DNA of 64,000 nt. Origin: Ruditapes philippinarum (lineage: Eukaryota). The notes under the pieces are model-generated. The model was not told where the DNA came from and searched no databases. It saw only the letters and a list, made by a program, of their open reading frames with translations. This document shows, in pieces, positions 24,861-54,002 of the stretch; the first letter of the stretch is position 1, and each line of letters opens with the position of its first letter. Made by a program: the position numbers and the translations under genes. The DNA is taken from NCBI RefSeq assembly GCF_026571515.1, contig NW_026853701.1, positions 1 to 64,000 of the forward strand, read 5' to 3'.

Positions 24861-24899
24861 CCAAGGACCAACCTTTGAGGCCAGGGGGAGGTCCGCTTG

Positions 24900-28228: not shown

Positions 28229-29657
28229 ATGGATACCGTTTCAGGTTATAATGAGTGAGAAGACACCAAGACGAGGCAAATTATACACCTGCTTACACTG
28301 TCTGAAGCAAGGGAAAACCTTTACAGAAGTACAGGGTAACTGGTGTTTGGAAGCACCATGTACCGTTGTCAGAGGCTGTGTTCTATTGTTCCCTGTGTCT
28401 CTTTAGATGTACAACAGAGGAGGCGTTGATGAAACATGTGAAGACCTACAAAAGGCTTTTGTTAATGAAGAAAGGGAAAGGTGAAGGTAATAATGACAGT
28501 ATATATTTAACGAAGAATCCTACACCGAAGACGTTATTGGAAGGGGTTGACTACAGGGTGCAGACAGTGGAGGAACGAGTTTCGGGTGTGTCAACTGATG
28601 AAGATCCATTTTATTTAAGCAGCACACAGGTAAAGGGAGATAGCAGACTGATAACAATCAGTGTGACCCCAGAAGTATTATCTGATTTCATTACTAGCCA
28701 GAATGACAATATTAACAAACAACCTAGTCAAGTACCTTCAGATGATACCGAAATTGTTAAAGATCAAAGGCATTGTATCGTGCAGCATAACCTTCCATTT
28801 ACGGTAACTTCCTCTTCCATTCCAACAGCCACAGCATCTTCCTCTTTGGGTTCCCCAGTAACAACAACTATGACGACTGTTCCATCATTGACACCGATCT
28901 CACGACAAGAAACCACATATTTTAACTCGCAAACTTTCAATTTCTTAGAATCCCTTTGTTTAACACCTGGGCAGGCAACACTTACAAGTACATATGTATT
29001 CAACACCCCTATTATTAAAATCCACACTGAGGAAAACACTTAAGATCAGCTGCTACCAAATGGAGCGTTAAATTTTGGAACGCCTTTCATCGCAACCCCA
29101 CAAATTGTGAACACGCCAAAGGTAAATATGGAAATGGAAACAGAGAATGTTGAGCCAGAGTGTAAGAAAAGAAAGTGTGAAGATGGAAAGTCAATAGAAA
29201 AGTTATTAGAAAGAATAGTTATGTCAATAGAAGCGAACAGTAGAGCGATTTGAAAGTGTAAAAAGGTCAATGGATAGAATGCACCATAGTTTTAAAGGTT
29301 TACACAGGACAAGGGAATAGATTAAGTATGATATTAAAGAGAGCAGAGAAAAGAATAGGAGAGTAGAAAGAAACAACAGGCACGAAGGGCACAGAGAATC
29401 AAACATAACAACCAGTCGACAGAGAACTATTTACACACCAGACAGCAGACATCACAGTAGAGAGTTCAACAGAGAACGACATAGAGAACGAGACAGAGAA
29501 GAAAAAAGTGGAAACAATAACAAAAGACGTAATAATGCAAACGATGACAGACAACACAAAAACCAAGGAAAGGAGCAAAGCATCAGAAACACTGAGGAGA
29601 AAAACAAAAACCTGAAAGAAGGACGATCTGTATTGAAGTCAGTGATAAATAAGTAAT
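28229..29657 (+). pseudogene. Extra ORF3 between pol and the 3' LTR: zinc-finger-like N-terminus, S/T/P-rich linker, charged tail
   Basis: YTCLHC..KHHVPLSEAVFYCSLCLFRC..LMKHVK (ORF 28366-29043), continuing through stops to ..RERHRERDRE..LKSVINK*. Confidence 0.65.
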
Positions 29658-30016: not shown

Positions 30017-31193
30017 TGATACATCCCGTATTTATTCTTTGTAAACAAGCTATTTTTAGAACTAGGTCAACACAAGTTAATCAAGTAAGTACAGGGAGTG
30101 TCAGTATACAATTTTAAGGGAAATCATTTTTATACTCACTTTTGCATTAATCTGAACTAATATTGCCTTTACAGTATTGTTTCATCCTTAGTAATTACAA
30201 ATTTTTACTGCCCGTAAAGCACATCCCTCTCTGGAGGCAACCATGTTTTTCAATTGCATTATGGGTAGTTACCCATGACAACTATATAGAAAAGTGTCAG
30301 ACTCTGAAGCTGTCAAACGATTTTATAAGTAAATTATTCACAGATAAGCTGCACATCAAAGATACCAAGGTGACAGTCATGTTATTTAGGGTTTAATCTT
30401 TTGATTTATGTCAATTTTTGAGGAACTTTAATTCATTTTTCTGATTTAAATTTAGTTTTTCTTGTACTACACATGGCTGTTCCATGTACACTTTATTGAG
30501 CTGTGTACATTTTGCACACAATTTCTAGGTTGTGTTCAGAGTTTAATTGAGTGCACCCAGCCAGTCTGTGTGTGCACACATAATTTGAGTGTGTAGCTGA
30601 GGAGTATATAAGCTCCTGTAAATTCAGCCAGAGCAAGTTTCTGAGATTTTGAGCTTCAGCTTGGGTTTTGAAAGTAAACATTTTTCTGCCATTGTAAGTC
30701 AACTTAATGTTTTGTTCTCTCTTTGCATTTATATAAAAGCTTTTATCAGTCATTTAAAAGTAAAAGTTATCATTTTGAAGTTAGGAATTTATTGTTTAAA
30801 CTTAGGTTTGTTGACAGATATGTTTGCATTTTTGAGCTTACTTACTTTAAGCTAATTTAACACAGAATTTTAATTTTTAAATATTACACTGCTTAATATA
30901 TTGTTTGGACTTTGTTTATGTCATATGTGTTTTGCTGACTTTTTGATAGTTTTAATTATTCATATGATAATTTTGATAAAAAATAATTAAATAAATAATA
31001 ATATTTAAATTTACTAAATCTTGGTGTTTCTTATAATAAAAATAGTTTAAGTAAAGGTATAGGTAAATAACCCCTAAGTTAGAAACTACCGATTAAGCTT
31101 AGCCATATTTGAGCCACACCCCCCCCCCTCCCGACTTTGTCCAGAGACCTCGGGATTCAACTTAGAGATACCTAAGCCGGCCAGAGTGCAACA
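30017..31193 (+). repeat. 3' LTR (1177 bp)
   Basis: Direct repeat of 22371-23300, preceded by the PPT and followed by ATAT. Confidence 0.95.
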
Positions 31194-32199
31194 ATATTAC
31201 AACAATCAAATAGTAAATGGTTGTATATATTTAGTATTTTGGACCTCAAGGCAATGTTCACTCGGCCATATACCGCCTCTCTAACTTTTATGATTTTTAA
31301 CAGAAGTCTCATTATTAATCATATTACTCTCATTTAATTGTCCGAAAGATTAAAACCAATGAAACAATTAAAATTCTAAATTTGGTTTACGGTAAAGTGG
31401 CTTTTTGCTGAGTAACGTTTGTGTATAATTTTTGTCTCGTTTTCTTTCCTTTTTTATAGCAAAAAACGAATACACTTTTTTTTTGAGGGCCCTTATCATT
31501 ATGCCACGACAAACTGCTATTTCGTTAGGTTGGCCATCTTTGCCGATGCTTAAACTGAAGCTATATAACGGAATGACTCAAAAATTATATAAGTGTCAGT
31601 CATTACAGATGTTTGTGATTTATGGACTTCAATTTTTCCAACTAGTGTTTAATAATAAATAGGTGATTAAGATTTGCTACGTTACATACACTAGTTTACT
31701 TAAGTTTGGCATAGATAAGTGACCTATTATTTTACTAACCATGCGAGAAATTCAGGCGTTATCAACGTCTAGACATACCTTTGTATACCATAATACCATG
31801 CGACAAATTCAGCCGGTACCTTCAGCTTTTTTCTAAAAACTTCTCCTGATTTTTCTGTGTCTCGATACCCCCCATTACGGTTCCCTGGGGGAGATATTCC
31901 GAAAAGGAAACCGCAAAAATATGTAGTAAAAAAATTATTTTTTAATATTTACCCTTTCCATAATATTTTTAAAAAGTTTACCCTTAAAAAAAACAAAATT
32001 CGATGAAATTTAGTATTAACTCGTTACTTTTTCTAAAACAGCGTTGAAATTAAATTCATTATAAAGGGAAAAAAAAACTCATCCTAAGCATGTCATTGTT
32101 TTGCATGCGACTCATCTTGCCCACCCATGCTAGATGAAATCTCAGGCATAAGTAAAACTAACGGAAACGCCACTCTGACATGCCAAAATATGGTTCTGT

Positions 32200-32870
32200 C
32201 TTTTGAATAGATGGTAATGTGGTTTTGATAAATAGTGATGTCAGTTTGATAGATGGTGATATCGTTTTATTTGAGTATACGGTGGTTTCATTTGATAAAA
32301 GGTACTGTGATTTTGATATGGCGTGATTGTTATGTTGTTTGATAGATGGTGATGTCGTTTTGATAAATGGTGCTGTGTTTTCGATAAATTGTGATGTCGT
32401 TTTGGTAAATAGTTAATTTGTATCGATAAATGGCGCGGCAGTTTTAATAAACCGTGATGTCATTCGTTTTGATAAATGGTGCTGTGTTTTCGATAAATGG
32501 TGATATCGTTTTGATCGATAATGAATTGGTTCCGATAAACGGCGTTGTGGTTTGAATTAACCGTTGTATCATTCATTTTGATAAGTCGTGCTGTGTTTTC
32601 GATAAATGGTGAGGTCATTTTGATAGATAGTGAATTGGTTCTGATAAATTGCGCTGTGGTTTAAATAAACCGTGTTCTCATTTTGGTAAATGGTGATGTC
32701 ATTTTGATAGATTATGCTGTGGTTTTCATACATGGTTCTTTCATTTTGAATATGGTGATATGGTTTTTACAAATGGTGATGTGTGTAACGTATTTATTGC
32801 TACAATATTTCTGTATGGTTTTGATATATGGTGATGTCGTTTCTATTATAAATGATGATGCTATTTTGGT
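32200..32870 (+). repeat. Degenerate ~21-bp minisatellite (TTTTGATAAATGGTGATGTCG)n
   Basis: Many imperfect copies; the reverse-complement array lies at 53410-54002. Confidence 0.85.
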
Positions 32871-33059
32871 AATAATGTACGTCTAACATTTTTTATTACG
32901 ATTGTTGTTGATCGAATTTGTTTGGTGTGGGTGAAACTGTTCTGACACAGTGAAAATGGTGGCTAATTAGGTTTGGTTAAGCCGCACATACTTGGGACAT
33001 GGAGCTGCACACGCTTAAAAATTCAAATGAATTTAATACTCGTCAAACCATGTACATAC

Positions 33060-33196
33060 NNNNNNNNNNNNNNNNNNNNNNNNNNNNNNNNNNNNNNNNN
33101 NNNNNNNNNNNNNNNNNNNNNNNNNNNNNNNNNNNNNNNNNNNNNNNNNNNNNNNNNNNNNNNNNNNNNNNNNNNNNNNNNNNNNNNNNNNNNNNN
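33060..33196. other. Assembly gap (N run)
   Basis: Run of N. Confidence 1.
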
Positions 33197-34419
33197 CGTT
33201 TGAAAGTGCATTGGTCTTGATAAATGGCGCTATATATATCTTCTGTATCAATTATTAACATCCAATTATTGAGGGGTGGTCAAATGAAAGCAATTAGGCC
33301 AATAACTCGCTTTTAACAACGTTTGCGCTATGTATCGCATAGATGGTTCTGTGTAAGTCAGTTCAGTATAGCTTTGACAATAGCTCGATTAACGCCATCT
33401 ACTCGTGTATGCTAAAATGTTCGTGAAGTTGGCAGCCTAGCAGTCTGAAGTTGGCAGCCTAGCAGCCTGGCAGCCTAGCGGCCTGAAGTACACTAAGAAT
33501 AGTACAAACATGGAAACAGTCGGAAATAGAATTCGAAAAAGATAAAATAACGAATCCGAAAACATATCTAAATGTCGTTTTCCTGTGCTTTCTTTACATA
33601 GCTGTGGTAAATTCCGCTCATGGAGTGTAATAACGAATTCTTCGTTTTTGGTCGTTATTTCATCCCACGCCGAAAGGCTGCGGGGATATAGAAATAGTCT
33701 TCGTCCATTCTTCCGTCCGTACTTCCATCCGTACTTCTGTCCGTCCATCCATCCGTCCGTCCTCCTGTCCGACATTTTTGTCCGGAGCATATCTCAAAAA
33801 GTCTTTGAGGTATCAACTTGAAACTTCATAGGTTGATAGACCTCATTAAAGGGGTGTGCAATGCATAAGAATGATCACTCTACCTTGCATAATTTTTGAG
33901 TTATTGCCCTTTGTTTTGTTTTTTCAAAATTAATTTTTGTCCAGAGCATAACTCAAAAAGCCTTTTAGATATCAACATGGAACTTCATAGGTGGATAGAT
34001 CTCACACAGGAGGTGTGCAGTGCACAAGAATAATCACTCTACCTTCCATAATGTCCATTATTTACATAAATGAACTTTCTGTGATGACTGGTGTGTCTTG
34101 TATGTGTTTTGAACAAACTATAACATGAAGATGAAACCATTAGCCAAACCAGTCATCATCAATTCGTTCAAACTTAACTCACATTGGCGATTCTATGTAA
34201 TATTTATAGTTCTTATATACCTACACCTATCAATACTATCTTCCATGTCGATAATGCAATCTCTACTCACTCATCAGAACGAAATATTAAACTGTGCATT
34301 CAGATTCAAACGCACACATCCTATGTCTGCAATTCACCACAGAAATGTCACATTTTCATATGTTATATTGTCTCTGCTAATAAGCATCCAATGTTCACTC
34401 TTAGGATTTCTCATGTGTT

Positions 34420-35439
34420 TTTATATGCCTTTCTGGTGATGTGCATCCTAATCCTTGACCAGACGTTTCAATATCAATTTCAAGTAGTTCCCTTTTATCC
34501 AAATCCAGCATAGCCTTGACAGATATTTCCTCTTATTTTTCTTTTATGCACTTCAATGTTCAGAGCATTAAACATAAACTAGATACGCTCTTTGCCGAAT
34601 TTAAGGACTTTGATATCCTCTCTTTCTCTGAATCATGGCTAGATAGTTCTACACCAAACAGTGATTTAATCTTTGAAGGCTTTCATGAACCAGAAAGGAA
34701 AGATCGGTTAGGGGGCAGTCACGGAGGAGTGCTGTTGTATGTAAAAAGCTACTATCGTTATTTGCGTCGTCATGACTTGGAAATTCAAGGAATTGAGTGC
34801 ATTTGGGTTGAAATTATTAGCAAGACAAAACGCTTTCTCTATGGTACTTACTACCGACCACCTTACACTTCTACTCTACAACACTCCTTAATCGAAGATT
34901 CCATTAATCTTGCTGTTGATTCCGGTATACCAAACATCATAATCACGGGAGACTTCAACATTAACATGCTTAATTCTACTGCCTCTAGAAAATTAATCTC
35001 ACTTATTCAGCAACTTTCTCTTACTCAACTTATTTCAGAGCCAACCCACTTAAATGAAAGCTCCAACTCACTAATCGATATTATTCTCACATCGAATCCT
35101 TTATTCATATACACTGTTGGTGTTGGTGAGCCTTGTCTAGACCAACCTGTTCGCTATCACTGTCCTGTTTTTGGCCTGATAAATTTTAATAAATCAAATA
35201 CTCACACTTATACAAGGCATATATGGCTGTTTGGCAAAGGCAACTATCAACAACTTCGAGAACTTGCAGCTTCAACAAATTGGCACCAATTTAAAGACCA
35301 ACACAAAATCACAGAAGCCATAATAGATATATCAAAAATATGTATTCCTAACAGAAACGTAACCATAAGACCAAATGACCCACCCTGGTTTCCTCCTAAC
35401 TTAAAAACACTTATCAGACAAAGAGGTAGATATTACAAA
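34420..35439 (+). pseudogene. LINE ORF2 N-terminal part: 2A-like motif and apurinic endonuclease domain
   Basis: In-frame LSGDVHPNP*P, then HFNVQS, SESWL, RKDR..GGV, YYRPP, GDFN, PTH..IDIIL, HCPV, PPWF. Confidence 0.92.
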
Positions 35440-36647
35440 CAAGAGGGCCATGATGGCCTGAGGTAGCTCACCTGTATATAGGCCCCCGAAGCGGGGCCAG
35501 TTTAAACCCCAGGGCTTTTATTTAAACAAACTTGGAATTAAGACACCCATTAGAAGATGTTTCATGATGTTAAGTTTTTGCTATACACATATAAGGAAAA
35601 ACAATGACGTTCTCTCCCCCCCCCCGGCAGAGTTAATTTTAACCCAAGGGCTTTTATTTGAACAAACTTGGTAGACACCCATAAGAAGTTGTTTCATGCT
35701 AAACATCTAAGCTCTAGCTCATTGGGTTTTTTAAAAGAAGATTTTTTAAGTTTTTACTATACACATATAGTTAAAAACAATGACACCCCTGGGGTGGGGC
35801 CAGTTTTGACCCCAGGGCTTTTATTTGAACAAACTTTGTAGACACTTATTAGAAGATGTTTCATGCTTAATATCTAAACTCTAGCTATTTGGTTTTTTTC
35901 AAAGAAGATTTTTTAAGTTTTTGCTATACACATATAAGGAAATCAATGACCCCCGGGGTGGGACCAATTTTGACCCCAGGGCTTTAATTTGAAAAAACTT
36001 TGTAGACACTCACTAGAAGATGTTTCATGCTTAATATCTAAACTCTAGCTATTTGGGATTTTTTCAAAGAAGGTTTTTTAAGTTTTTGCTATACACATAT
36101 AAGGAAAATCAATGACCCCCGGGGCGGGGCCAATTTTGACCCCAGGGCTTTTATTTGAACAAACTTAGTAGACACCCATTAGAACATGTTTCATGCTAAA
36201 TATCTTAGCTCTAGCTCTTTGAGTTCTTTAAAAGAAGATTTTTTAAGTTTTTACTATATGCATATAGGGAAAATCAATGACCCCCCTGGTGCGGGCCAAT
36301 TTTGACCCAGGGCTTTTATTTGAACAAACTTGGTAGACACTCATTAGAAGATGGTTCATGCCAAATATCTAAGCTCTAGCTCTTATGGTTCTTTAAAAGA
36401 AGATATTTAAAGTTTTTTCTTTCGGTTGCCATGGCAACCAGAGTTATGCATGGAATTAAATTCTTTGAACAATTTTTAAAGGTGACCACCAAAGGAACAT
36501 TCTTGTGAAGTTTGGATGAAATTGGCTTAGTGGTTTATGAGGAGATGACATTTGAAGCAAAAGTTTACGGACGGACGACGGACGGACGCCGGACGAAAAG
36601 CGATCACAAAAGCTCACCCTGTCACTTTGTGACAGGTGAGCTAAAAA
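35437..36647 (-). mobile_element. Complete HINE-type element A (~165-bp cores)
   Basis: AAACAAGAGGGCCATGATGGCC..GCTCACCTG at one end; GACG repeats, CTGTCACTTTGTGACAG palindrome and GTGAGCTAAAAA at the other. Confidence 0.85.
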
Positions 36648-37198
36648 CTATTTATTGTACATATAACATGAATTGCCCTTTATTTCAAATGTTATACTCT
36701 AACTCTTTGATGAATATCAAATAAATAATGTGACCTCCTTTATGGTCAAAAAAACCTAAAAACATTAAATTTAAAGTTTAAAGATCAAGGGAAGCATTTA
36801 TAAAATAAAAAAAACTGCAAAGGGTAATAAAGAAATATACTCAGAATTAAATTGAAAATTGATAGGTAATGCATTTATTAATTAAACCTGATTTTGGGAT
36901 CATTTTGCATAATAAAATTAAATATTTTGGGAAAACTTGGCAAGGGAATGATCTGAAAACATGCACACAATAGGCCAGTCTGGTTCAGGCCTTCATAAAA
37001 TTGTACACTCATCTTGGAATAATATATCAAGTCCTGTCTAATAAAATGTCAAAAGATTTTAACAAGGTTTTTCTTCGTCTCTAAATAGAGTTAATAATAT
37101 TTGTGTTTAATTTTGATGTATAAACCTATCAAAACATCTTTAGTTTAAACTCATCTGAAATATTTAAATTATTTTCACAAATACATGTAACCATTCTG

Positions 37199-38113
37199 AC
37201 AAAGTTTTATTGGCCCAAAAGCACTCACCTGAGGACAGGCTGTTATTTGTGTGAAAGCAGTGAAAGTTAGTTGTTATTACAAGATTCTGAATGAAATCGC
37301 TCACCTTTATAGCCAAGGCCAATTTAAAACCAGGGGCTTTTATTTGAACAAACTTGGTAGACACTCGGAAGAAGATATTTCATGCTTAGAATCTAAACTC
37401 TACCTCTTTGGGTTTTTTGTAAGATCTTTAAATTTTTACTATACACATATAAGGAAAATCAATGACCCCCGGAGTGGAGCCAATTTTAACCCAAGGTCCC
37501 TTATTTGAACAAACTTGGTAGACACCCATTAGAAGATGTTTCATGTTAAATATCTTAGCTCTAGCTCTTTGGGGTTTTTAAAAGAAGATTTTTTTAAGTT
37601 TTTACTATAAACATAAAGGGAAAAACAATGAACCCCTGGGACGGGGCCAATATTTACCCAAGGGCTTTTATCTGAACAAACGTGGTAGACACCCACCAGA
37701 TGATGTTTCATGCTTAATATCTTAGCTCTAGCTATTTTCGTTTTTTAAAAGAAGATACATATAAGGAAAATCAATGACCCCCGGGGCGGGGCCAATTTTG
37801 ACCCAAGGGCATTTTTTTGAACAAACTTGGTCAAACTTGGTTTTGAACAAACTAGTCAAACATTGACTAGATGATGTTTCTTGCCAAATATTTAAGCTCT
37901 AGCTCTTTCGGTTTTCTAAAAGAAGATGGCAACCAGATTTCTGCTTGGTAACAATTTTTAAAGTTGACTACCACAGGAACATTCCTGTGAAGTTTGAATA
38001 AAATTGGCTTGGCGGTTTAAAAGTTTAAAGTAAAAGTTTACGGACGGACAAACGCCGGACGAAAAGTGATCACAAAAGCTCACCATGTCACTTTGTGACA
38101 GGTGAGCTAAAAA
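37199..38113 (-). mobile_element. HINE-type element B, same family as A, more decayed
   Basis: Same cores (GGGCTTTTATTTGAACAAACTTGGTAGACAC) and same end TGTCACTTTGTGACAGGTGAGCTAAAAA. Confidence 0.8.
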
Positions 38114-38119
38114 GCCAAA

Positions 38120-39060
38120 GGTCACTTCATGAAAATCTAGGTAAGCTGATACCAAAGGTAAATTGTACATTTAACATCTAAAACTGCACATGGCCCAAAT
38201 TTCATGGCTGTACATCAAAGGACAAGAAAGTAGGTCACATGTTAAACAGTATATCGGCTGACATTAAAATTCATTTTTACATCTCAAACTGTGCACATGG
38301 TCCAAATACCCACCAGACAATGTTTTATGTTGAATATCTAACTTCTAAGCTCCAGCTTTTTGTTATTCAGAAAACATTTTTTAGCTTATGCTTTTACTTT
38401 ACATACATAGTCAAAATGAAAATCAATGACCCCTGAGGCATGGCCAATTTTGAACCCAGGGCTATGATTTGAACAATCTTGGTACATGTAGAGGTCCACT
38501 ACTACACACTGTGTCATGCATATATCTAACTTCTAGCCTTTCAAGAAGATTTCTTAAGTTTTTACTATATACATGTACATATATTAAAGGAAAACCTATG
38601 AACCCCCCCCCACCCAGGGCAGGCCAATTGTCACTTTGGCAGGGGACCTATAGATGACATAATATACCAATACATGTATCAAAGTTCTACACCTTGTACC
38701 TTCAGACAAGAAGAGTTTTTATAATTTTACTTTACATACATAATGACAATCAGTGATGTGAGCCCCTAACAATATTGGCAAAGGTCTACTACACAATGTT
38801 TCAAGCCAAATATCTAACCTCTAGCCTTTGTCAATTCCAAATATGAATGCTCTGGGCCTTGATACTTTCAGACAAGATTTTTTAAAATTAAATGCATTCT
38901 TGAAACTCCTTTTTGGGCCCCATTACCTACTTATGCAACAGACATGTACCATGTGAACAACTTTGAAAGGGGACCATCAAAGGATCATTCCTGTAATGTT
39001 TGGTTACAGTGCAGTCATTGGCGTCAAAGGAGATGTTGTTTAAAGTAATCGTTGATTATT
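38120..39060 (-). repeat. Old degenerate HINE-core remnants
   Basis: Diverged ATCAATGACCCC..GGCCAATTTTGAACCCAGG and ATATCTAAC(T/C)TCTAGC motifs. Confidence 0.5.
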
Positions 39061-39680
39061 CATTCAGTCGGGTAATTTTAAAAAAATCCAGTGATCACAT
39101 CTCTGTCCGTTTCAAGATTTTGAAATTTGGTAAAAAAATGTTGGAGTTAAGGAGTTGGCATAGCCCAACAAATTACCTTGTTATATGATAATAACTAAAT
39201 AAGGCAATTCGAAATTAATTATAGTATATTGCATATTTACACAAATATGCATTTATCTGGAGCTCTAATAAATAAATAAATTTACAGTTTTATACATGTG
39301 AACTTTTTTGGATGAACAAGTGGGAGATTTTTCTTCATAAAGAGGGAGATTTTAGAATTTGCAATAAACAAAGAAGAAAGTTCTGACATCGGAAAGAGGG
39401 AGATTTCTTTAATTTTGTTTAGAAATAAACATTCTCAATAACATTGGCAATAATAACAAAAGAAGTGGATGTAAATTACAAGAAGGGAAAACGCTTCCAA
39501 ACCGGCCAAAGAAGCTCAGCTTAGCATCCTTGACGATGTTCCGGCCTGAAATACTACATGAACTACATGTGAAAATACCCTTATTTTAAGAAAAATCTTT
39601 GAAAATAGCAATGTTTTAAGCCAAATATTTAACCTCTAGCCTTTGTCAATTCCAAATATCAATGCTCTGGGCCTTGATGC

Positions 39681-42600
39681 GTACGGCTAGCCAGGCAACA
39701 CTGTATTCAGGCTAGCCATACGGCACTTTTCAAAAGTCGAAAATGCATATGTTAATTTATGACTTTAAGCGAGGATTTTAACAAAGAAACAGATATTGTC
39801 TTTGTTAGACGCTGTCTAGTAGATATGCATTTGTCCGTACAGCAATGGGGTTATTTAAGACTTGATTTTTTTTTAACAAAATCACACTGTTTTCAATTTT
39901 TTAAATAAAAATTGCTTTTCTGATGCAAAACATGTTACAGACCTTTAAGGGATTAAAATAAACGTTTAATTGAAATGATAGTGCCATGTTTGATTATCAT
40001 ATTCTTTTTTACCATTATCTAACTTTATCTGCATAATAATAAGCCAATGAGCCAGTCTATAGTCGATCATTCTAAAACTTAACCGTTGAAAGAGGTAACG
40101 ACTGAGGCAGTGTCACTCACTTAATTTGCTCCGCCTCTGTTGAAGTTGCAAAATTTAATATGATGCTCCGTATGCTAGCATTTAGTCTTCGTTGACTGGA
40201 CAGAAGGGATCCAGGACAACTTTGATCAATATCACTTGTCGAATCACTAAATTATAAGTTACAAAGCCTAAACAATGCCTACTAAAGCGGTTCTCTCTCA
40301 ACCGTAAACTCTGCGCACCGGTTACACTACTGCCAGTAAGGGAAATCACTGCAGAATAGTTCGTCCTCAAAAATATTCAAACATTATGCAATTCGTACCA
40401 ATATTTAAATAGACATATTCTCGGCACATACTGTCTTGCATTAAAATGATTTATTTTAAGTATACATGTACCAATCATTTCAATTTTACTTGTTATCCAA
40501 TTTATTTTGCTTCGACCAGACGTTTCAATCTTTGTCGCAACAGACAAAAATTTCAGAATTTCAGACATGGCATTACTTTGTGAATTTATGCATTAGGTTC
40601 TACTTTTTCAGAAAAATATGCAACTTAATTATTAAAAATCGAGCACATACCAAGGACATGGAGAAAATTTGGTTGTGCTTCGGATATTCAACTGTAATAG
40701 AGAACGATTTTCAATGTTGATTGACTGTTCACACCATTTGGCTGCGTCTTGGATGTGCAGCATCAACATTTAACTTGTATGTTTACTTTTTAGAGATTAA
40801 TGATGGCTACAGTAAAGAAAGTACGAATATCCAGAGGGCGAGAAAAAAGAGCATTTGGTTGCAGTTGAATAACATCAATTGAAATAGTTTACAAAATTGT
40901 GATAATAATCCTTTTTTGTTTCAATAAGTTTAATTTTCAACACCTTTAAAATGAAAAAAGCTGTTGTTGGGCTCTGATAATTGCGTCAATTACCAACAGT
41001 AGAAGTTTGTCCATCATTAAGAAAAATTTGCATGTTCCGTGAAACCCATTCTAAAATTATATTGTCAGTCCCTGGATAGGCTTTAATTAAGGCTAATTTA
41101 TTGTGCTTTTATGTTCGATATCTATCAACTGCATTTAAAAATTATACAATTGGTTTTTGCTTTTCTCGGTTTTTTATGCTCCCCGAAAAATTTCGGGGGA
41201 GCATATAGTCGAAACCTTGTCCGTCCGTCCGTCTTTCCGTCCGTCCGTCCCCTTTTCTTGTCCGGGATATAACTTTGAAACAACTAGAGGTATCAACATG
41301 AAACTTTGTAGGTAGATAGATCTCATTGCGTAGGTGTGCAGTGTACAAGAACCGTAACTCTGCCTTGCCTTTTTTTTTAATTATTCCCCTTTGTTTATTT
41401 TTACACTTTGAACTTTGTCCGGGGCATAACTCTAAAAGTATAAGAGGTATCAACATGAAACTTCGTAGGTAGATAGATCTCATTGAGTAGGTGTGCAGTG
41501 CACAAGAACCGTAACTCTGCCTTGCCTAATTTTTGAATTATCACCCTTTGTTTATTTTTAACTTTGAACTTTGTTTAGGACATAACTCTAAATTTATAAG
41601 AGGCATCAATATGAAACTTTGTAGGTAGGTAGATCTCATTGAGTAGGTGTGCAGTGCACAAGAATTGTAACTCTGCCTTGCCTAATTTTTTAATTATCCC
41701 CCTTTGTTTATTTTCACACTTTGAACTTTGCCCAGGAAATTACTCTAAAACTATAAGAGGTATCAACATGAAACTTTGTAGGTAGATAGATCTTATTAAG
41801 TAGGTTTGCAGTGCACAAGAACTGTAACACTGTCTTGCCTACTTTTGGAGTTATTGCCCTTTGTTCATTTTGACACTTTGAACTTTGTTCGGGACATTTC
41901 TCTAAAATTATAAGAGATATCAACATGAAACTTTGTAGATAGATAGCTCTTATTGGGTGGAAGTGCAGTGCTTAAGAATCATTACTCTGCCTTGCCTTAT
42001 TTTGAAGTTATTGCCCTTTGTTTATTTTTACTTTTTGATTTTTGTCCGAGACATAACTTTAAAACTATTAGAGATATCAACATGAAACTTTGTAGGTAGC
42101 TAGATATAATTGGATAGAACTGCAATGCTTAAAGAACCTAAACAAAGCCTGGTCTAATTTTGGAGTTATTGCCCTTTGTTCATTTTTACACTTTGAATTT
42201 TACCCGGGGCATAACTCTGATATCATCAGGAAACTTTATAGATAGATAGATCTCATTGAATAGAAGTGCAGTGCAAAAAAACATGACTCCGCCTTGCCTA
42301 ATTTTAGAGTTTTTGCCCTTTGTTCATTTCTTTTATACTTTCCTGTGTCCAGAACCTTCTTGGGGAGCATCACCCGGTTCAACCGGTTCTTGTTTTTCAA
42401 TGTTCTTTTTATTTATTCCACTCCGATCATGCCGTTATGAAAAAGCTTCTTTTGCCATTATGATTATTTATTTGATCCATGTGCTTAATAAACAAGAATG
42501 ATTTAATTATTCATCTTTCATTCAAATAAAACAACAAATCATAAGCATGAAAAACAACAACGATGTTATAACTTGTAACATGCAACTTTGACACCTTTAT

Positions 42601-42885
42601 CAAGATTACAACGCTTGCATTACCTTTGTATTCATTTGTTTTTTTTTTACAAAATGGCAGAGCATCTTTATTAAAGTGAACACACGAGGGCAAATGCGGG
42701 GACTTGGTTAATATATTTGTTTAAAGACACAAAATAACATATGCATTTTGGACTTTCATTAAATTTTGAAAAGTATTGTACGGCTAGACAATACAGTTTG
42801 TCCTGGCTAGTCGTACATGTACATGACTCACATATGGCTAGAACTTTTGGCTAGCCATACGGGCCCGTACTGCTGACACTTCCTG
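39681..42885. mobile_element. Non-autonomous TIR element (hAT-like ..CCTG end), left terminus lost
   Basis: 39681-39754 (GTACGGCTAGCCAGG..CTTTTCAAAA..AAATGCATATGTTA) is an imperfect inverted copy of 42735-42815; the right arm continues to ..GCTGACACTTCCTG. Confidence 0.6.
41171..42397 (+). mobile_element. Complete HINE-type element C (~7 cores of ~158 bp)
   Basis: TTTTTATGCTCCCCGAAAAATTTCGGGGGAGCATA palindrome, (GTCC)n, tandem cores, sub-TIR GGGGAGCAT, hairpin ACCCGGTTCAACCGGT, TCTTGTTTTT. Confidence 0.9.
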
Positions 42886-42908
42886 CAGAAAATGGGAGCC
42901 TCCCAAAA

Positions 42909-44830
42909 CAAGGCCGTCGTCGATGGTCCGGCCGGTCCGGCCTTGGCCAAAATTGAGAAAAAAAACAACAACAAAAAACACGCATCGCTGATTAGCAATT
43001 TGACACATAACTGGCTCCTTGCAATGCGCGGTAATATACAAACATGACGCGAAGAAACAACTGGACACAATTAATTGACCAGGTATATGTAGGGGTCATA
43101 CGAAGTCAAGTTCGAGTACTTTTTCGGTGCACATGACATCCTAGCATTGATAGACAACCTCAGCAAATCACCTCAACAAGTTTCACTGTCAGCATCCGAG
43201 GGCCAGCGGCTAGCAAAGCGGACTCTAGATAGTTTGATAGACATGAGATCAGACGACAGTTTTGATTCTTTATGGATTAAACTTCAAAGTGAGAGTGATT
43301 GCGTCGGTGTTAACGATCCAAATGTTCCGCGGAAGAACAAGGCGCCCACACGATTCGAGATGGGGCACGGTGTTGGCTACCACCCCGTTACAGTGCAGGA
43401 CGTGTTCCAGCCTTAGTACTTTGAAGCAATCGATCTTGCCATCGCCAGTGTTAAAGAGAGATTTGACCAACCGGGATATCGCGTACTTCAAAACGTGGAG
43501 AATTTACTTATAAAGGCCGCACAACCTTTGAAGACCGAGTCCACAAGAGAACTTGGTTTTGTTTGTGATTTCTGTGGTAACGATATTAACCGAGACATCT
43601 TAGATGGATTGAGACTAAAAAAAGGATTGGAGCACCACACTAAATAACGTATTCCGGTATATACCGGGCAAGGCGCTTGAATCATAAAATGCTATAATCT
43701 TGCCTTTTTACCCAACGGAATGAACTTTAATATATGACTTATTCATCTTTTCACACCGATTTATGTATGATAATGAATGAAAAATGTAAAAATCGGCAAA
43801 AAAGCGATATTTGTCTATTTTGTGATCATGATTTCTGCAAGCGTCTAGAGGTACTGCTCTATTCTGTATTGAGTTAAATCCTCTTAGAAATGCAGCTTCA
43901 GCTGCTACGTTCACATTTTGACAAATCAGAAAATAGTACTGTTACTCTACCCAACATTTTGAAATTTGCGTCAGAACAGTCGGTGCTAGAACGAGCACTG
44001 TTTTCTGAGGTCGTTGTGTTGTTAAAGATTTTGTTAGTAATGCCTGCTACTAAAATAACTAATGCTACCAGTGAAAGGACATTCTCAGCGTTCAGAAGAA
44101 TTAAGACATACCTGAGATGGACAATGTCTCAAGTACGTTTGAACAATCTAATAGTGTTGACAGGACAGATCCACTCAACTTACGTGTAATTGCCGATGAG
44201 TTCATTACTACCAGAGAACGACGGCGATTTGTTTTTGGAAAATTTACATCAAATGAGATTCTGTGTTGTGTAAGATTATTGTTAACAAAATACAAGTTAC
44301 TGCTAAACAAAAAGTGGTTGTTGTTGACTAGTAATGTACTATTCTTCCATCATGTCATCGATTGTTATTTAAGCTTATACCATTGTGTGATTTATGCTTA
44401 ACAATGATCCACGTACTGTAATATTTCTTTTATTCTCTAGGAGAGCATCCTAGAATAAAAAAAATCTGGAGGAGCATGACCCCCGTACCCCCCTAGATTC
44501 TACCTTAAACCTATCAATCAGATAAAAATGCATCTAAAGAATTATAATAACATCAGTTATTGTTTATTTTTCATTTGCCAAATATCAATTACATGTATTC
44601 ATATTTTATGTACACCTGTCCGTCTGTCATGCGAACCTTAATTAAATTTAACCCTTAAACTTACGACGCACTTAAATCTGTAAAAAACGTTGACATATTA
44701 CTATAACATGTACTAGCGGCAGGCTGTAAACTGTGTCAAATATACAGGAAAACGCCCCCGAGAGCAACCTAGAATAAAAAAAATTTCCGGAGGAGCATGC
44801 CCCCGTACCCCCTACATTCTACCTAAAACC
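42909..44830 (+). mobile_element. hAT transposon remnant (ZMYM1-like transposase C-terminal half, ~43090-44240)
   Basis: DNLSKS.Q...SASEGQ; PRK.KAP.RF; YFEAID..KERFDQPG; dimerisation domain LLVMPAT..NATSERTFSAFRRIKTYLR.TMSQ.RLN. GC-rich end CAAGGCCGTCG..CCGGCCGGTCCGGCC; GGAGCATG.CCCCGTACCCCCTA repeats at ~44470 and ~44792. Confidence 0.85.
43606..43881. mobile_element. 276-bp MITE inside the hAT transposase
   Basis: GGATT...AATCC degenerate TIRs; TSD TCTTAGA(T/A) at 43598-43605 and 43882-43889. Removing it restores ..NRDILEMQLQLL.. Confidence 0.75.
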
Positions 44831-45110
44831 ACGGATTTATATTACAAAGATCGGACACTTTCGTTTAGCTTAAAGTCTCGTCGCGCGCATGCGCGGAATC
44901 GGATAAAGCTGGACAGAATGAAATGGCGGAACGAGCCGAGTGCGAAATATGACAGACTTTCACAAGAGTATGTGGTGTTATAGCAGCTTTGTGAAAAAAT
45001 AAACACATATGAATGTATTGATACAGTATTATTTTGTATCGCTAAAGTATTAATATATGAAAATATGCCGATAGAATGATGCAACGCTTAGTTAAAATAG
45101 TACCTAATTT

Positions 45111-46906
45111 AAACAAGAGGGCCATGATGGCGCTAGATTGCTCACTTGACTTATCAAACTCATCCAAACAATTACCTAGACATGCATTCTGACCAAGTCT
45201 CATGACAGGTGAGTCAAAAATGTGACCACTACAGTGTTAACAAGGATTATCCATATTTGAGCAGTGCGACCTAGTTTTTTACCCGGTGTCACACATATTC
45301 AAACTTGACCTATAAATCATCAAAACAAACTTTCAGACCAATTTCCAGGATACTTTGATCAAAACAGTAGCAACTACAGTGTTAACAAGATTTTTCTATT
45401 TTTAGCTCCGGTGACCTAGTTTCACATGCAATTTCGAAGTCATCCAAGCAATTACCTAGACAAGCATCCTGACCAAGTTTGATGATAATTGAGTCGAAAA
45501 TGTGACCACTAGAATGTTAACAAGGTTTTTCCATATTTGGGCGGTGTGACCTAGTTTTTCATCCAAGATGACCCATGTTCTATCTTGACTTAGAAATCAT
45601 CAAAACAAACTTTCAGACCAATTAACAGAATATTTGGATCACAAAAGTAGCCACTAGAGTGTTAACAAGATGTTTCTATTTTTAGCTCCTGTGACCTAGT
45701 TTTTCATCCAAGATGTCCCATGTTCAATTTATTCCCAGCAATGACCTAGACAAGTTTCCTGACCAAGTTTGATGACAATTGAGTCAAAATTGTGACCACT
45801 AGTGTTAACAAGGTTTTTCTATTTTTAGCTCCTGTGACCTAGTTTTTCATCCGAGATGACCCATGTTCGAACTCATCCGAGCTATCACCGAGACAAACAT
45901 CTTGGTCAAGTTTGATGATGATTGATGCAAAAATGTGACCGCTAGAGTGTTAACAAGGTTTTTTCTATTTTTAGCTCCGGTGACCTACTTTTTCATTCGA
46001 GATGACCCATGTTCAAACTCATCCGAGCTATCACCTAGACAAATATCTTAACAAAGTTTGATGATGATTGATTCAAAAATGTGACCGCTAGAGTGTTAAC
46101 AAGGTTTTTCTATTTTTAGCTCCGGTGACCTACTTTTCATCCGAGATGACCCATGTTCGAACTCATCCAAGCTATCAACTAGATGAGGATCCTGACCAAG
46201 TTTGATGATGATTGATGCAAAAATGTGACCGCTAGAGTGTTAAAAAGGTTTTTCTATTTATAGCTCCGGTGACCTAGTTTTTCATCTGAGATGACCCATA
46301 TTCGAACTCATCCGAGCTATTATCTAAACAAGCATCCTGACAAAGTTTGATGATGATTGGGTTAAAAATGTGACCACTAGAGTGTTCACAAGGTTTTTCT
46401 ATTTTTTGCTCCTGTGACCTAGTTTTTCATCAGAGATGACCCATGTTCGAACTCATCCAAGCAATTGACTAGACAAGCATTCTGACCAAGATTGATGATG
46501 ATTGGTTCAAAAATGTGACCACTAGAGTGTTCACAAGGTTTTTCTATTTATAGCTTCTGTGACCTACTTTTTTATCCGAGATGACCCATGTTCGAACTCA
46601 TCCGAGCTATCACCTAGACAAACATCCTGACCAAGTTTGATGATGATTGGGTCAAAAATGTGACCTCTAGTGTGTTCACAAGGTTTTTCTATTTTTAGCT
46701 CTTGTGACCTAGTTTTTCATCCGAGATGAGCCATGTTCGAACTCATCCGAGCTTTCAACTAGATAAGCATCCTGACAAAGTTTGATGATGATTGAGGCAA
46801 AAATGCGACCGCTAGACTGTTCACAAGCAATTGTGTACGTACGACGTACGACGGACATTCACCGATCCTAAAAGTTCACCCTGAGCAAGCTCAGGTGAGC
46901 TAAAAA
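45111..46906 (-). mobile_element. Complete HINE-type element D (~145-bp cores, ~11 copies)
   Basis: AAACAAGAGGGCCATGATGGC end; AATG(T/C)GACC at 45932, 46078, 46222, 46367, 46512, 46657 and 46802; end CCTGAGCAAGCTCAGGTGAGCTAAAAA. Confidence 0.88.
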
Positions 46907-49147
46907 GCCAAACGCACCAACACAGAACACGATTGGTTGCAATTTAGGACACTTCGCAACAATATTTTATCAAAAATAAACATTTCTAAAGCAAATCATA
47001 TACAAAATCTTGCAAATAATCTTAAGACATCACAGCATAACACAAAATCATGGTGGTCCTGCCTGAAATCATTTATAAAACCCGGTTCCTCTTCCTCTAT
47101 TCCTCCTCTGCAAAATGGTGATATTTTAGCTGAAGACGAAAAGACAAAAGCAGACATACTGAACGACTTTTTTATTGACCAAACACTTTTAAATGAACCA
47201 GAGCAAACTGCTGCGATTTTCCAGCTAAATGAACCTTGTACATCAAATATGGAATCCTTTTCTATAACACCCGATGAAATATTACTTGTCCTAAAACACC
47301 TACCATTAGGTAAAGCAGCAGGTCCAGACGGTATAAACAATAGAATTCTTGCAGAGTTGTATAATGAGCTTTCTACTCCTTTAGCTGATTTGTTTAATGA
47401 ATCTCTATGTTCTTCGGTATTTCCCATATGTTGGAAAGAAGCGTTTGTCTCGCCTATATTCAAATCTGGTGACCGGTCTATTCCTGGAAACTATCGCCCT
47501 ATATCTCTTCTTTCTACAATTGGTAAAGATTTCGAAAGAATTGTTTTCAAACACACCTTCAACTACCTCCACTCCAACAACCTTCTAACACCTTTGCAGT
47601 CAGGCTTCATACCTGGTGACTCAACAACAAACCAGCTAACATATCTGTACAATTTCTTTACTGAAGCAATTGACGCCGGTAAGGAAGTTCGTGCCGTATT
47701 CTGTGATGTTAGTAAAGCATTTGACAGGGTGTGGCATAAAGGCCTATTGTTTAAATTTAAATGTATCGGCATCAATGGAAACTTGCTTTCATGGTTCTCA
47801 TCCTATCTCCATGGCCGCAGGCAATGCGTTGTTATACCTGGCGCACATTCTAAATGGAACACTGTTAAAGCAGGAGTACCTCAAGGATCTATTTTGGGAC
47901 CTCTTTTGTTCTTAATGTATATAAACGACATTGTTATCGATATACAAGCTAATATTCGCCTATTTGCTGATGACACGAGTCTATATCTTATTGTAGATGA
48001 TCCTTCCTCTGCTGCTACCACTCTTAACTCTGATCTCTCTACTATCTCCGACTGGGCCAAAACACGGTTGGTAAAGTTCAACCCGAAAAAAACAGAATCT
48101 CTTATCTTGACTCGCAAAACTGGCAACCAAGTCCATCCACCCTTAGAGATGAAGGGGGAGACTATTCAAGAAGTTACTCATCATAAACATCTTGGTGTAT
48201 TTTTCTCTTCTGATCTCAGATGGAATATTCATATAAACTATATAATTGAGAAAGCCTACAAGCGTATCAATGTAATGCGAAAGTTGAAATTTATCCTTGA
48301 TCGTCATTCACTGGAAAAAATTAATATGTCTTTCATTCGTCCTCTTTTAGAATACAGTGATGTTAACTTTGATAACTGTACATCTCAAGAGAAGGAAACA
48401 ATCGAAAAGGTTCAGTACGAGGCAGCTCGTATTGTAACGGGTGCGACCAAACTTGAGTCAATTGCCAAACTTATGTCCGAGGTAGGGTGGGAATCCCTTG
48501 ATTCTTGTCGTAACCAACACGAACTTGTTCTTTTTTATAAAATGACCAAAAATCTTGCCCCTCCTTATCTTTCTGAAATGCTTCAAGTTTCCACCAATGA
48601 ACAATCATATAACTCATATAACTTACTAAATCAAAACTATTACAGGGCTCCTAGAGCTCGTACCACGCTATATTATAATTCCTTCTTGCCATCCACAACT
48701 CGAGCCTTTAACAGTCTTCAAAGTGACGTTCGCAACTCTCCAACATTATCGTCATTTAAACAGAGTATATCTCCTAACATTCAAAAGCCACTGAAATATT
48801 TTTACTATGGCAAAAGAAAACTCCAGATTTTCCACACACGTCTGAGGACCAACTGTAGCTCTTTGGCTGAAGACCTTTTTTCTAAGAATATCATACCTTC
48901 GCCTCTTTGCGTCTGTGGACAAAGGGAAGCAACTCGACATTTTTTTCTCGACTGTCCTCTTTATAAAAACATAAGGCCTCAGTTGATAAACTGTATAAGC
49001 ACATACTGTCATGTTTCACTAAAAACCATCCTGTTTGGTAACACGACACTTACTGACTCAGATAATGAGAAAATATTCCTTGCAGTTCATAAATATATTG
49101 AAAAATCGAATCGCTTTGATTCTCCAACAATTTTCAACTATCATTAA
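46904..49147 (+). pseudogene. LINE ORF2 C-terminal part: reverse transcriptase, open for >736 codons
   Basis: KAAGPDGI, NYRPISLL, QSGF, DVSKAFDRVWH, GVPQGSILGPLLF, LFADDT, HKHLGV, C-terminal CVCG..E...HFFLDC. Confidence 0.95.
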
Positions 49148-50944
49148 GGGTTAAATCACAGGTCATTTTTTCTGGGTTTTTTTCTCCTTCTTTTTCTATC
49201 TCATTCTTCTTTCTATCCGAACGTATCAAACTATTATCATTATTAGTCTTATTTTGCTTTTCTTTAAATAATTGATATATCTTATATTTATTTATTCATT
49301 TTCGATGCAAGTTGTAACACATCAGCCTTCTAAGTCAACAAACGACAATTTATTTCGCCTTATTTAGCACATATATTTATTGTACATTGGGAAAAGACTT
49401 CAATAAGCATTAGGTTGCTTCCAGTCTAATCCTTTTCTTGTTTTGATTGTAAATATCATGTATGTAAATATGCTTATGTGAGAAAGAATAAAATATGTTT
49501 AAACCAAAGGGGTGTGCAATGCATAAGAATGATCACTCTACCTTGCATAATTTTTGAGTTATTGCCCTTTGTTTTTTTTTTTCAAAATTAATTTTTGTCC
49601 AGAGCATAACTCAAAAAGCCTTTTAGATATCAACATGGAACTTCATAGGTGGATAGATCTCACACAGGAGGTGTGCAGTGCACAAGAATAATCACTCTAC
49701 CTTCCATAATGTTTGAGTTATTGCCTTTGTTATTTTTCATATTTAATTTTTCACCTGAGTGGAGCATAACTCAAAAAGTGTTTGAGATGTCTACATGAAA
49801 CGTCATAGGTTGATAGATCTTATTGAGGAGGAGTGATGTGCGCAAGATTGATAACTCTTCCCTATATAATTTTTGAGTTATTGCTCTTTGTTCTTTTTCA
49901 TACTATTTTGTCCGGAGCTTATCTCAAAAAGGTGTTTGAGGTATCAACTTTAAACTTCCTAGGTAGATGGATCTCATTAAGGAGGAGTGCAGTGCACAAG
50001 AATGATAACTCTACCTTGCATAAGTTTTGAGTTATTGGCCTTTGTTTTTTTTTTTTTTTTTCAAAATTATTTTTTGTCCAGAGCATAACTCAAAACGCCT
50101 TTGGGATATCAACATGAAACTTCATAGGTGGATAGATTGGGAGGTGTGATGTGCTTAAGAATGATTACTTTACCGTTCATAATTTTTTAGTAATTGCCCT
50201 TTGTTATTTTTCATATTTAATTTTTCACCTGAGTGGAGCATAACTCAAAAGTGTTTGAGATGTCAACATGAAACGTCATAGGTGGATAGATCTTATTGAG
50301 GAGGAATGCTGTGCACAAGAATGATAACTCTTCCCTATATAATTTTTGAGTTATTGCCCTTTATTCGTTTTCAAACTATTTTGTCCGGAGTTTATCTAAA
50401 AAAGTATTTGAGGCATCAACTTGAAACTTCAGGTGGATAGATCTTACTTAGGAGGGGTGCAGCACACAAGAATGATAACCTACCCTGCATTATTTTTCAG
50501 TTATTGCCCTTTGTTATTTTCAGACATCAGTTTTACATAGGTTTCAAATCTGTAATCACTTCAGCCATCAGTTTTCATTACCAAAAGACCTCTTAAAATA
50601 ACTCAAATGACGTGGCTTATTATCCGTGGACAGCGACATTTCAGCCGAGAAATGTTCTTAGACTAAGACTACTTCCTACGTTATTTGAAAAAAAAAGAGT
50701 TTAATCCCGCAAATTTCGAAGCGTCAGAATGAAAGAAATTATGTTAAGATAAAGTTCAACATCTTAAAAAATAAAGATCACGATATTGAAAAAAAGGTGT
50801 GGAATGATCTAAGTGGTACTAATGTAATTCCAAGCGTTTTCATGTTTGTACTATTCTCAGTTTTCTTTAGGCTGCTAGGCTGTCAACTTTAGGCTGTTAG
50901 GCTGCCAGGCTGCCAACTTCAGGCTGCAACTTCACGAACATGTA

Positions 50945-53330: not shown

Positions 53331-53409
53331 CAGCCCGCTCTTTTTGAAAGTATTCACGGACGTCTGGTCATGCAAACTGAGTTTGTTGTATTTTTAATTA
53401 TGTGTAGCA

Positions 53410-54002
53410 TAGACTCACCATTTATATAAACGACATCACCATATATGAAAACCAATATGCTTATTATGAAACACACATCACCATTTAATTTTGTAAACCA
53501 TTTGTAAAAATCAGAACACCAGATATAAAATATCAGAACCATGTATGAAAACCACATCACCATATATATATATATGACACATGACAGCACGATCTTTTAA
53601 AAAACAGCACCAAATAGCAAAACTACATCGCCATTTATATAACAACGACATTGTCAAATATATGTCAAATCACATCACCATGCATTGAAACCACTTCACC
53701 ATCTATCAAAACAACAGCACCATCTACCAAACCAACACCACCATATATCAAAACCTAGGCACCATCTATAAAAAACGACATCACATATCTAAATAGTTAT
53801 AACAAAAACATCTATCAAAACACATGAAAATGTATGAAAAGGACATCATCATATATAAAGAACGACATCGCCACATATGAAGAAGATACTTCTATATGTG
53901 AAAACGATATCACTGTCTATCGAAACGTCATGATCACTACATTTGAAAAAGACATCAACATTTATCAAAACCATAGCACCATATATTAAAATGACATCAC
54001 CA
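53410..54002 (-). repeat. Degenerate ~21-bp minisatellite, inverted relative to 32200-32870
   Basis: (TATCAAAACGACATCACCAT)-like units. Confidence 0.8.

Follow-up and report, generated by a model that had tools for sequence, protein, structure and literature searches.

A HINE-bounded 11.5-kb block inside a young bivalve LINE: a candidate rolling-circle transduction

An old, gene-free piece of DNA of 11.5 kb lies, as a clean insertion, inside a young LINE of the bivalve Ruditapes philippinarum. The window, that is the whole stretch analysed, covers 64,000 nucleotides (positions 1 to 64,000 of contig NW_026853701.1), and its relevant features are collected in Table 1. As the initial annotation had described, the block runs from the hairpin end of one HINE (A) to the opposite end of another (D) in the same orientation, spanning the 5' end of one element to the 3' end of another at a clean empty site. 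It is quite likely that this block arrived by rolling-circle transduction, taking a one-step and a two-step version together, and the evidence leans towards copying in one rolling-circle event that would have started at the 5' end of D, proceeded by bypass and stopped at A. We infer that the 5' end of D was the origin of the event and HINE A its terminator.

Table 1. Features of the block, its host LINE and the flanking duplication
Feature	Position	Strand	Description
207-bp direct duplication, left copy	33848..34054	+	206/207 identical to 49506-49712; flanks LINE
LINE 5' part	34084..35439	+	broken N-terminal extension, apurinic endonuclease (PF03372 E 2.6e-12); ends at A-run target; 5' edge (34084) approximate, taken from contig ends
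HINE A	35437..36647	-	165-bp array; 3' end left, 5' (microsatellite) end right
AT-rich spacer	36648..37200	.	without second copy within window
HINE C, degenerate 3' end	37201..37276	-	hairpin gone (fold -0.3 kcal/mol), subterminal repeat with 1 mismatch
HINE B	37277..38114	-	A's family; 5' end intact, 3' hairpin lost
HINE C, decayed body	38115..39058	-	67-72% to A units, 70/100 to A's right part
Non-coding TIR element	39681..42816	.	arms 73% alike over 116 columns
HINE E	41170..42397	+	157-bp array; nested in TIR element, opposite strand to A/B/C/D
hAT remnant	42910..44829	+	C-terminal 288 residues only; 71% to P0001 residues 371-658 of 659; left edge (42910) approximate, by eye
High-copy element X, left part	44830..45113	.	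natural terminus at 44830; mid-element break at A6 run holding D
HINE D	45111..46906	-	145-bp array; intact 5' (microsatellite) end at right LINE junction
LINE 3' part	46904..49505	+	reverse transcriptase (PF00078 E 4.8e-29), 747 open codons, 3' UTR
207-bp duplication, right copy	49506..49712	+	

The block measures 11,464 bp and occupies 35440-46903 (equivalently 35438-46901 or 35439-46902). Its excision in silico leaves a LINE ORF of 1,075 codons from 34459, with a terminal stop only and the junction YYK|KAKR, across which four aligned homologues indicate that residues are neither lost nor duplicated. The initial annotation had thus rightly seen that excision restores ORF2 in frame, although its coordinates, 35439-46903, are one base too long. 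Contigs from other copies of the LINE, present in three of four public runs, join 35437 to 46902 and so skip exactly 11,464 bp. The empty site holds A6 whereas the filled site holds A3 and A5, and insertion into the A-run therefore took place without target duplication, as had been proposed. Compared with the empty site, the two LINE joints are exact to the base, and both ends of the block are HINE ends at a T-run, which is the published Helentron target (PMC4067079, PMC7492417). No LINE sequence is detected within the block at E<0.01, in keeping with the earlier statement that there is none between A and D.

Both bordering elements have the structure of HINEs (non-autonomous Helentron/HLE2), with subterminal inverted repeats (subTIRs) at both ends, an inner inverted repeat and microsatellite at the 5' end, and a 3' palindrome or stem-loop outside the 3' subTIR. 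Insertion is in a T-run without target duplication, with A6 at the LINE empty site and likewise at the X family site. Assignment to canonical Helitron1, which is defined by 5' TC and 3' CTRR ends and an A|T target (PMC11417382), was rejected as the ends are of the subTIR/T-run type with a T|T target. The left (3') end of A has an intact hairpin with a 6-bp stem and a perfect subterminal repeat, and its right (5') microsatellite end is also intact. The 3' end of D, on the other hand, contains private changes at 45132, 45139 and 45146, one of which is a mismatch in the 3' subTIR; at 45132 the family has the other letter in 230 of 242 reads in one run (X21) and 193 of 194 in another (X24). D still folds a 5-bp stem (6 bp in the family), and three changes in 36 bases are no excess over the 4.6% background (P = 0.23); they could postdate the move. 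The description of A and D as each complete, with different cores, consequently stands for A, for the cores and for the outline of D but not for the hairpin end of D. Only about 38 and 68 terminal bases are common to the two elements, the cores (165-bp and 145-bp arrays) being unrelated, and only 21 and 15 terminal bases are identical, which leaves little scope for homologous recombination.

The left flank of D, element X, indicates where D had been. Past 45113 the X family has one conserved continuation, beginning with three more A's, in 175 reads of X21 and 98 of X24 (agreement 0.90/0.91), whereas the terminus at 44830 has mixed flanks in 157 and 119 raw reads (agreement 0.43/0.44). The continuation is absent from the window beyond chance, a 14-letter motif giving 1 match against 0.63 expected. 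The other half of X is missing and the LINE is found in its place, and hence D and its left flank come from another locus and were cut at the outer end of D, the presumed initiating element, whose outer flank belonged to that locus. The suggestion that the interior might be an element with its own termini breaks down at the right end, since 45110-45113 is a mid-element break and not a terminus.

The condition of the HINE ends has a polarity. There are four 3' ends on the same strand, of which only that of A, the last in order, is intact, with those of D, B and C damaged. All three 5' ends present (A, B and D) keep an intact subterminal repeat, and the hairpin end of E is intact, yet lies on the other strand. 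Damaged inner hairpin ends with an intact outer one are what a bypass model predicts, although the damage may be later than the move. On the whole the initial interpretation, that two non-autonomous elements acted as a composite, is supported. At the donor locus, a hAT would have held X, X would have held D, and A would have been situated at a further distance of 8.5 kb. A Rep-helicase from a Helentron, acting in trans, would nick at the T-run of D, and replication would then read through the damaged 3' end of D and the 8.5 kb of old, repeat-rich DNA. D, C and B would be bypassed on account of their damaged ends and E because it lies on the other strand, until termination at the intact hairpin of A, after which the copied strand would enter the LINE between T residues. 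The polarity assumed here, with a start at the 5' end and a stop at the 3' end, is carried over from Helitron1 experiments and the published HINE structure.

Related behaviour is documented in several systems. The compound Helitron1 HelibatN539 of vespertilionid bats (Thomas et al. 2014, PMC4224331) likewise used one copy's 5' end together with the 3' end from a same-orientation neighbour to mobilise the DNA between, and was read as end bypass with the second element as terminator. HelibatN539 is a canonical Helitron1 with a parental locus found and a gene piece carried; the present block, in contrast, has Helentron/HINE-type ends, unrelated cores and a gene-free cargo, and it is known from one copy, for which no donor was found. 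Experiments on 3' transduction by Helraiser (Grabundzija et al. 2016, PMC4778049) showed that the left end is essential, that the hairpin is the terminator and that bypass captures flanking DNA, in about 11.7% of events with the hairpin and at least 36% without it, for a 1.6-kb cassette. Helraiser is a Helitron1 studied in cultured cells, the available part of that paper including no HINE/Helentron test, and its cassette is far below the 8.5-10 kb considered here. The composite FoHeli elements (Helitron2) of Fusarium oxysporum (Chellapan et al. 2016, PMC5148889) were explained by a similar model, in which a nick at the outermost 5' end and a stop at the first 3' end give several 5' ends and one 3' end, but their duplicated 5' pieces are typically <200 bp and derive from self-insertion, and the accessible text has no long flank between them.

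The elements themselves resemble Cg_HINE of the Pacific oyster (Vojvoda Zeljko et al. 2020, PMC7492417), which has a 5' subTIR with inverted repeat and microsatellite, a 140-180-bp array and a 3' subTIR with palindrome. They have in common the subTIR/array/palindrome layout, the TT target and the lack of a TSD and, as in Cg_HINE group 2, related flanks with unrelated arrays; insertions of Cg_HINE into non-LTR elements have also been noted. Cg_HINEs are short single elements or double arrays no more than about 1.2 kb apart, and multi-kb transduction is not described in the sections available. In Drosophila the same class of element (DINE-1/HINE) occurs at the breakpoints of duplicated genes, and end bypass or composite transposition has been proposed (Thomas et al. 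2014, PMC4067079; Yang et al. 2008, PMC2211543), although the available portions of these papers leave recombination versus transposition open. Here an empty site known to the base, the severing of element X and the polarity shown by the damaged ends favour transposition over recombination.

The interior consists almost entirely of transposon pieces, and no host gene was found in the cargo. The body of HINE C stops short of a microsatellite end, and its 3' end appears to have been separated from it by B. The TIR element had been called truncated, but both arms are present and the ends are not truncated. The hAT remnant contains one stop, one frameshift and a 275-bp insertion, and no right terminal repeat was seen for it. 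One run (X1) contains three stretches of the interior letter for letter (436, 295 and 172 nt), the longest being a contig over 36834-37269 with 0 differences, and the identical contigs confirm two inner joints. Sample S1 may be the source of the assembly, in which case its identical contigs are not independent support. A 415-nt interior contig at lower depth in X1 has 6 differences, and a 180-nt contig in X5, from another study, has 3 differences and 1 gap. Both could represent copies at the donor or on another allele, the contigs giving no placement. Reads matching 44380-45140 at ≥99% number 3 of 1,876 in X21 and 1 of 1,282 in X24. With sampled shares of about 4% and 12%, respectively, this is no proof that the copy is absent. 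An exact 27-letter spacer pattern and a pattern from the hairpin end of A each gave 0 loci in metagenome contigs, a search uninformative for a bivalve.

The piece of X has at least 13 differences from its family majority in 284 nt (4.6%), whereas the LINE has 40 in 2,400 nt (1.7%; Fisher p = 0.003). The divergence of the sole dated piece of cargo is thus only 2-3 times that of the LINE, a distance from a family majority overstating age where subfamilies exist. The initial view that the interior is far older was overstated for the one datable piece, and the contrary case of a cargo younger than the LINE does not hold for the measured piece.

Several other histories could lead to the same arrangement. 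In the two-step version of transduction, which we regard as unlikely, A would have entered the LINE first and D, together with its 8.5-kb flank, would later have inserted into the A-run beside the 5' end of A as a one-ended product of 10.3 kb with a chance stop. This accounts equally well for the cut X element, adjoining Helitron insertions and new palindrome-free ends are on record (PMC4067079, PMC4778049), and the T-run left by HINE ends is a preferred target. However, the second insertion would have had to strike one specific A-run, when the LINE alone contains 11 runs of at least five A's, and the end at 36648 has neither a subterminal repeat nor a HINE-type hairpin. The array units of A, 6.2-12.6% from the in-window unit majority and with indels peculiar to the first unit, hint that A is older than the 1.5-2% LINE, but only weakly, as an element may already carry unlike units when it inserts; divergence between the units of an array was discarded as a clock.

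Distinctly improbable is recombination or break repair, whereby the broken end of a HINE already in the LINE would have invaded A elsewhere, been extended by copying across the interior and D, and annealed again at the outer end of D. The final structure would be identical, and ectopic, repeat-mediated recombination is the preferred reading for Drosophila duplicates flanked by DNAREP1 (DINE-1) (PMC2211543), but the exit would be confined to the last 15 identical bases of A and D, even though B, 1.5 kb from A, offers ~190 bases closely homologous to the 5' end of A. Moreover, recombination does not predict damage limited to the inner 3' ends.

That the assembler switched loci at high-copy HINEs is more doubtful again. 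The window contains two N gaps, and in every run listed less than half of the interior words are present (0.21-0.37 in 20 of 24 runs; best 0.37). Mapping of reads and contigs to 33200-49500 was dominated by HINE contigs, and no record bridging the LINE-A, A-spacer, X-D or D-LINE joints is among the 15 of 3,738 joints and 24 of 10,497 loose ends listed, which speaks for neither presence nor absence. Such a chimera would nevertheless still require a real insertion at precisely this site, of A type at its left end and D type at its right, and in addition misjoins into a locus where the same two families follow in the same order, and it sits poorly with the exact LINE joints and the two inner joints backed by identical contigs. 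Serial nesting in place, in which A and D would have entered the LINE as neighbours, the interior being either an own-ended element or a later pile-up, suits an interior made of transposon pieces but is scarcely credible, being largely refuted by the mid-element break. It is also opposed by the more decayed cargo, by pieces with no LINE sequence between them and by the inverted pairs, 160 in all, the 25 longest of which include no terminal inverted repeats for the interior itself.

This locus bears on whether HINE/DINE-1 elements transpose neighbouring DNA or merely seed recombination. Composite transposition has been published for bat Helitron1 and, in the available texts, only hypothesised for HINEs; the supplements of PMC4067079, PMC4224331 and PMC7492417 could add cases. 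A young LINE whose empty state is known and which served as landing site, a flanking element cut exactly at a HINE 5' end and damaged inner 3' ends form a clean diagnostic that lends itself to genome-wide screening. On average, about 6% of a bivalve genome consists of rolling-circle elements (PMC10294476), and many structural variants of oysters are of this kind (bioRxiv 10.64898/2026.02.10.705023), and hence even rare read-through could move much DNA. It is possible, though doubtful, that the start and stop ends of bivalve HINE families are interchangeable, such that any HINE with a worn terminator pairs across families with the next intact one and, given the density of HINEs, the resulting copies of 10-kb-scale segments are a routine engine of segmental duplication and presence/absence variation in bivalve genomes. 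If so, this locus would be a base-exact witness that fixes the start-to-stop polarity of Helentron ends. The single event here carried no gene and its function is not evident.

The host LINE is of the APE type, with a single ORF encoding an apurinic endonuclease and then a reverse transcriptase, and presumably belongs to the CR1/L2 group. It is 1.45-1.97% distant from its family contigs, a range that omits two contigs which seem to come from other copies further removed (X1 record 5 with 13 differences in 232 and X17 record 22 with 15 in 226). Its ORF had been taken as stop-free, which is incorrect: the conserved GDVHPNP motif contains a TGA (34456-34458) that is private to this copy (another letter appears in four of four runs), and there are also a frame break upstream and a 6-codon deletion. 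Synonymous and non-synonymous differences stand at 6:12 over 18 codons among the 40 rows listed of 357, too few to decide but compatible with decay after insertion. The left copy of the 207-bp duplication around the LINE lies within a host HINE-type array with units of about 160 bp.

The window is repeat-rich and eukaryotic in character, contains two N gaps, and can be set against 24 listed public sequencing runs, all under one species label. Within it a block of 11,464 bp (35440-46903), bounded by two HINEs (non-autonomous Helentrons) called A and D, splits a LINE. Subtraction of the block leaves 1,075 codons in which the sole stop is the terminal one, and in protein alignment four homologues pass uninterrupted through the YYK/KAKR junction, which bears out the earlier claim that removal restores the reading frame. 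In other copies of the LINE family, contigs from three of four runs connect 35437 to 46902. Six A's make up the empty site; at the filled site three stand to the left and five to the right, and a target duplication is therefore lacking, as first proposed. The LINE copy is young, though not pristine. It differs by 1.45-1.97% from the family contigs of four runs, a range that omits two contigs from more distant copies, and it cannot be called stop-free, as it carries a private stop at 34456-34458, a frame break upstream and a 6-codon deletion.

Features of the split LINE and of the block within it
Feature	Position	Strand	Description
Apurinic endonuclease of LINE	34459-35439	+	coding
HINE A	35437-36647	-	hairpin end left, microsatellite end right, 165-bp core
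HINE B	37277-38114	-	
HINE C	37201-37276 and 38115-39058	-	
HINE E	41170-42397	+	
Element X, left part	44830-45113		
HINE D	45111-46906	-	hairpin end left, microsatellite end right, 145-bp core
Reverse transcriptase of LINE	46904-49147	+	coding

The HINE elements have the same layout as the oyster Cg_HINEs, as these are described in the accessible text (PMC7492417). A and D have the same orientation and unrelated cores, in agreement with the initial annotation; their two ends share 21 and 15 identical bases. From left to right, the interior begins with a 550-bp spacer next to A and a decayed HINE C interrupted by HINE B. A TIR element comes next; its arms are 73% alike and HINE E sits within it in the opposite orientation. 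A hAT remnant and 284 bp of a high-copy element, X, complete the interior. The hAT remnant retains only the final 288 residues, with one stop, one frameshift and one insertion, a high-copy sequence of 275 bp that breaks the coding remnant at 43609-43883. A similarity search of the block recovered no LINE sequence between A and D, again as proposed, and no host gene was seen among ORFs of at least 45 codons, Pfam searches on four ORFs returning hAT only. A 70-bp piece of HINE C (38794-38863) recurs with 96% identity at 39609-39678, directly before the TIR element. The same six letters follow an A-run at B (38110-38120) and D (46902-46912) in otherwise unrelated flanks, which is probably chance and possibly target bias.

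The origin of the interior can be judged from X, for which 44380-45140 was compared with two runs each of contigs and raw reads; its depth is about 340 in run X21. In both raw-read runs the loose read ends at 44830 are heterogeneous, with agreement of 0.43 over 157 reads and 0.44 over 119, as expected of a true terminus. Those at 45113 agree closely, at 0.90 over 175 reads and 0.91 over 98, and start with three further A's, so D inserted mid-X at an A6 run; neither set is among the 24 of 348 matches listed for the contig runs. The other half of X is therefore expected beyond D's outer end, where LINE is found instead, and its continuation is absent from the window beyond one chance 14-letter match. 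X also interrupts the hAT, which has no right end; family reads continue past 44812, and no inverted partner is present among the arms listed. Since X is cut mid-element at 45113 with LINE in place of its other half, the interior does not end on the right in a terminus of its own, as it would under an alternative raised at the outset. D plus the DNA to its left was therefore taken from another locus and cut at D's outer end.

The X piece also allows the cargo to be dated against the LINE. At least 13 of its 284 positions depart from the family majority among the 40 of 97 differences listed; the LINE departs at 40 of 2,400 in run X16 (p = 0.003). Reads on 44380-45140 are mostly 90-95% alike. 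The cargo is thus older than the LINE, not younger, by a factor of 2-3 on the X piece, which subfamily structure could inflate; for this piece the original description as 'far older' was too strong.

In the HINEs the microsatellite side is taken as 5' and the hairpin side as 3'. A strand read from D's 5' end meets four 3' ends, those of D, C, B and A. That of D differs from its family at three positions, in the hairpin, in the subterminal repeat and just outside this repeat; the hairpin change loses the outer pair, the other letter being present in 230/242 and 193/194 reads. Three changes in 36 bases are no excess over the 4.6% background (P = 0.23), and they may postdate the transfer of the block. 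The hairpins of B and C are gone, A's 3' end is perfect, and E's is intact but belongs to the opposite strand; subterminal repeats are intact at all three 5' ends present. Damaged inner 3' ends with an intact A are the pattern expected if copying were started only by the outermost 5' end and halted by the first good 3' end.

The most likely explanation, held with somewhat better than even confidence, is a single rolling-circle event. An autonomous Helentron would supply the activity in trans, copying would start at D's 5' end, bypass the 3' ends of D, C and B and stop at that of A, and the copied strand would insert between T residues of the LINE. A two-step course, with A in the LINE first and D plus 8.5 kb arriving beside it, is rather unlikely and would still be transduction. 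Recombination or repair is a more doubtful source, as the exit would be confined to 15 bases at D although B, much nearer, gives about 190. The block is real in the assembly, with better support than sequence alone could give the initial annotation. Run X1, possibly the source sample of the assembly, matches three stretches of the interior without a difference, the spacer/C and hAT/X joints among them. An assembly chimera retains a slight probability because no record was seen, among those listed, across either LINE junction, and serial nesting is scarcely credible.

In the accessible text of the papers concerned, composite transposition between neighbouring elements is documented for bat Helitron1 (HelibatN539, PMC4224331), hairpin bypass is demonstrated for Helraiser (PMC4778049), and for HINEs such a mechanism is given as a possibility (PMC4067079). 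DNAREP1-flanked duplicates are chiefly interpreted there as recombination (PMC2211543), and Fusarium Helitron2 composites have short 5' duplications (PMC5148889). In the accessible text of the literature searched, no HINE composite with a worked multi-kb example was seen. The process is known; what is new here is a cross-family pair with Helentron-type ends, spanning 11.5 kb, with no gene in the cargo and one copy seen.

The LINE is itself flanked by a 207-bp direct duplication (33848-34054 and 49506-49712; identity 206/207). This single difference, set against 1.5-2% between the LINE body and family contigs, has a probability of about 0.007 under equal ageing. Duplications of about 200 bp are a feature of RTE-1 of C. 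elegans. The flanks here reflect one of three things: a target duplication of unusual length combined with a source copy that had already diverged, later homogenisation, or assembly polishing. About 29 bases (34055-34083), filler or untranslated leader, separate the duplication from the apparent 5' edge of the LINE family contigs.

Elsewhere in the window, 4393-16164 is a tandem array of about three units, each roughly 3.7 kb long and 92-99% alike, that represents either a young tandem duplication or assembly stutter, and a 97-bp repeat occurs at 204, 6781, 9412 and 13100. A direct repeat (22371-23300 and 30017-31193; 94% and 83%) surrounds ORF remnants at 23936-25804 and 28306-29043, Gypsy-like by eye, and probably represents the two LTRs of a degraded retrotransposon. 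Finally, a 21-bp minisatellite and a short GC-rich repeat form inverted copies at 32190-33528 and 50825-54002 around the host HINE, so that the whole nest may lie inside an older foldback-type element.
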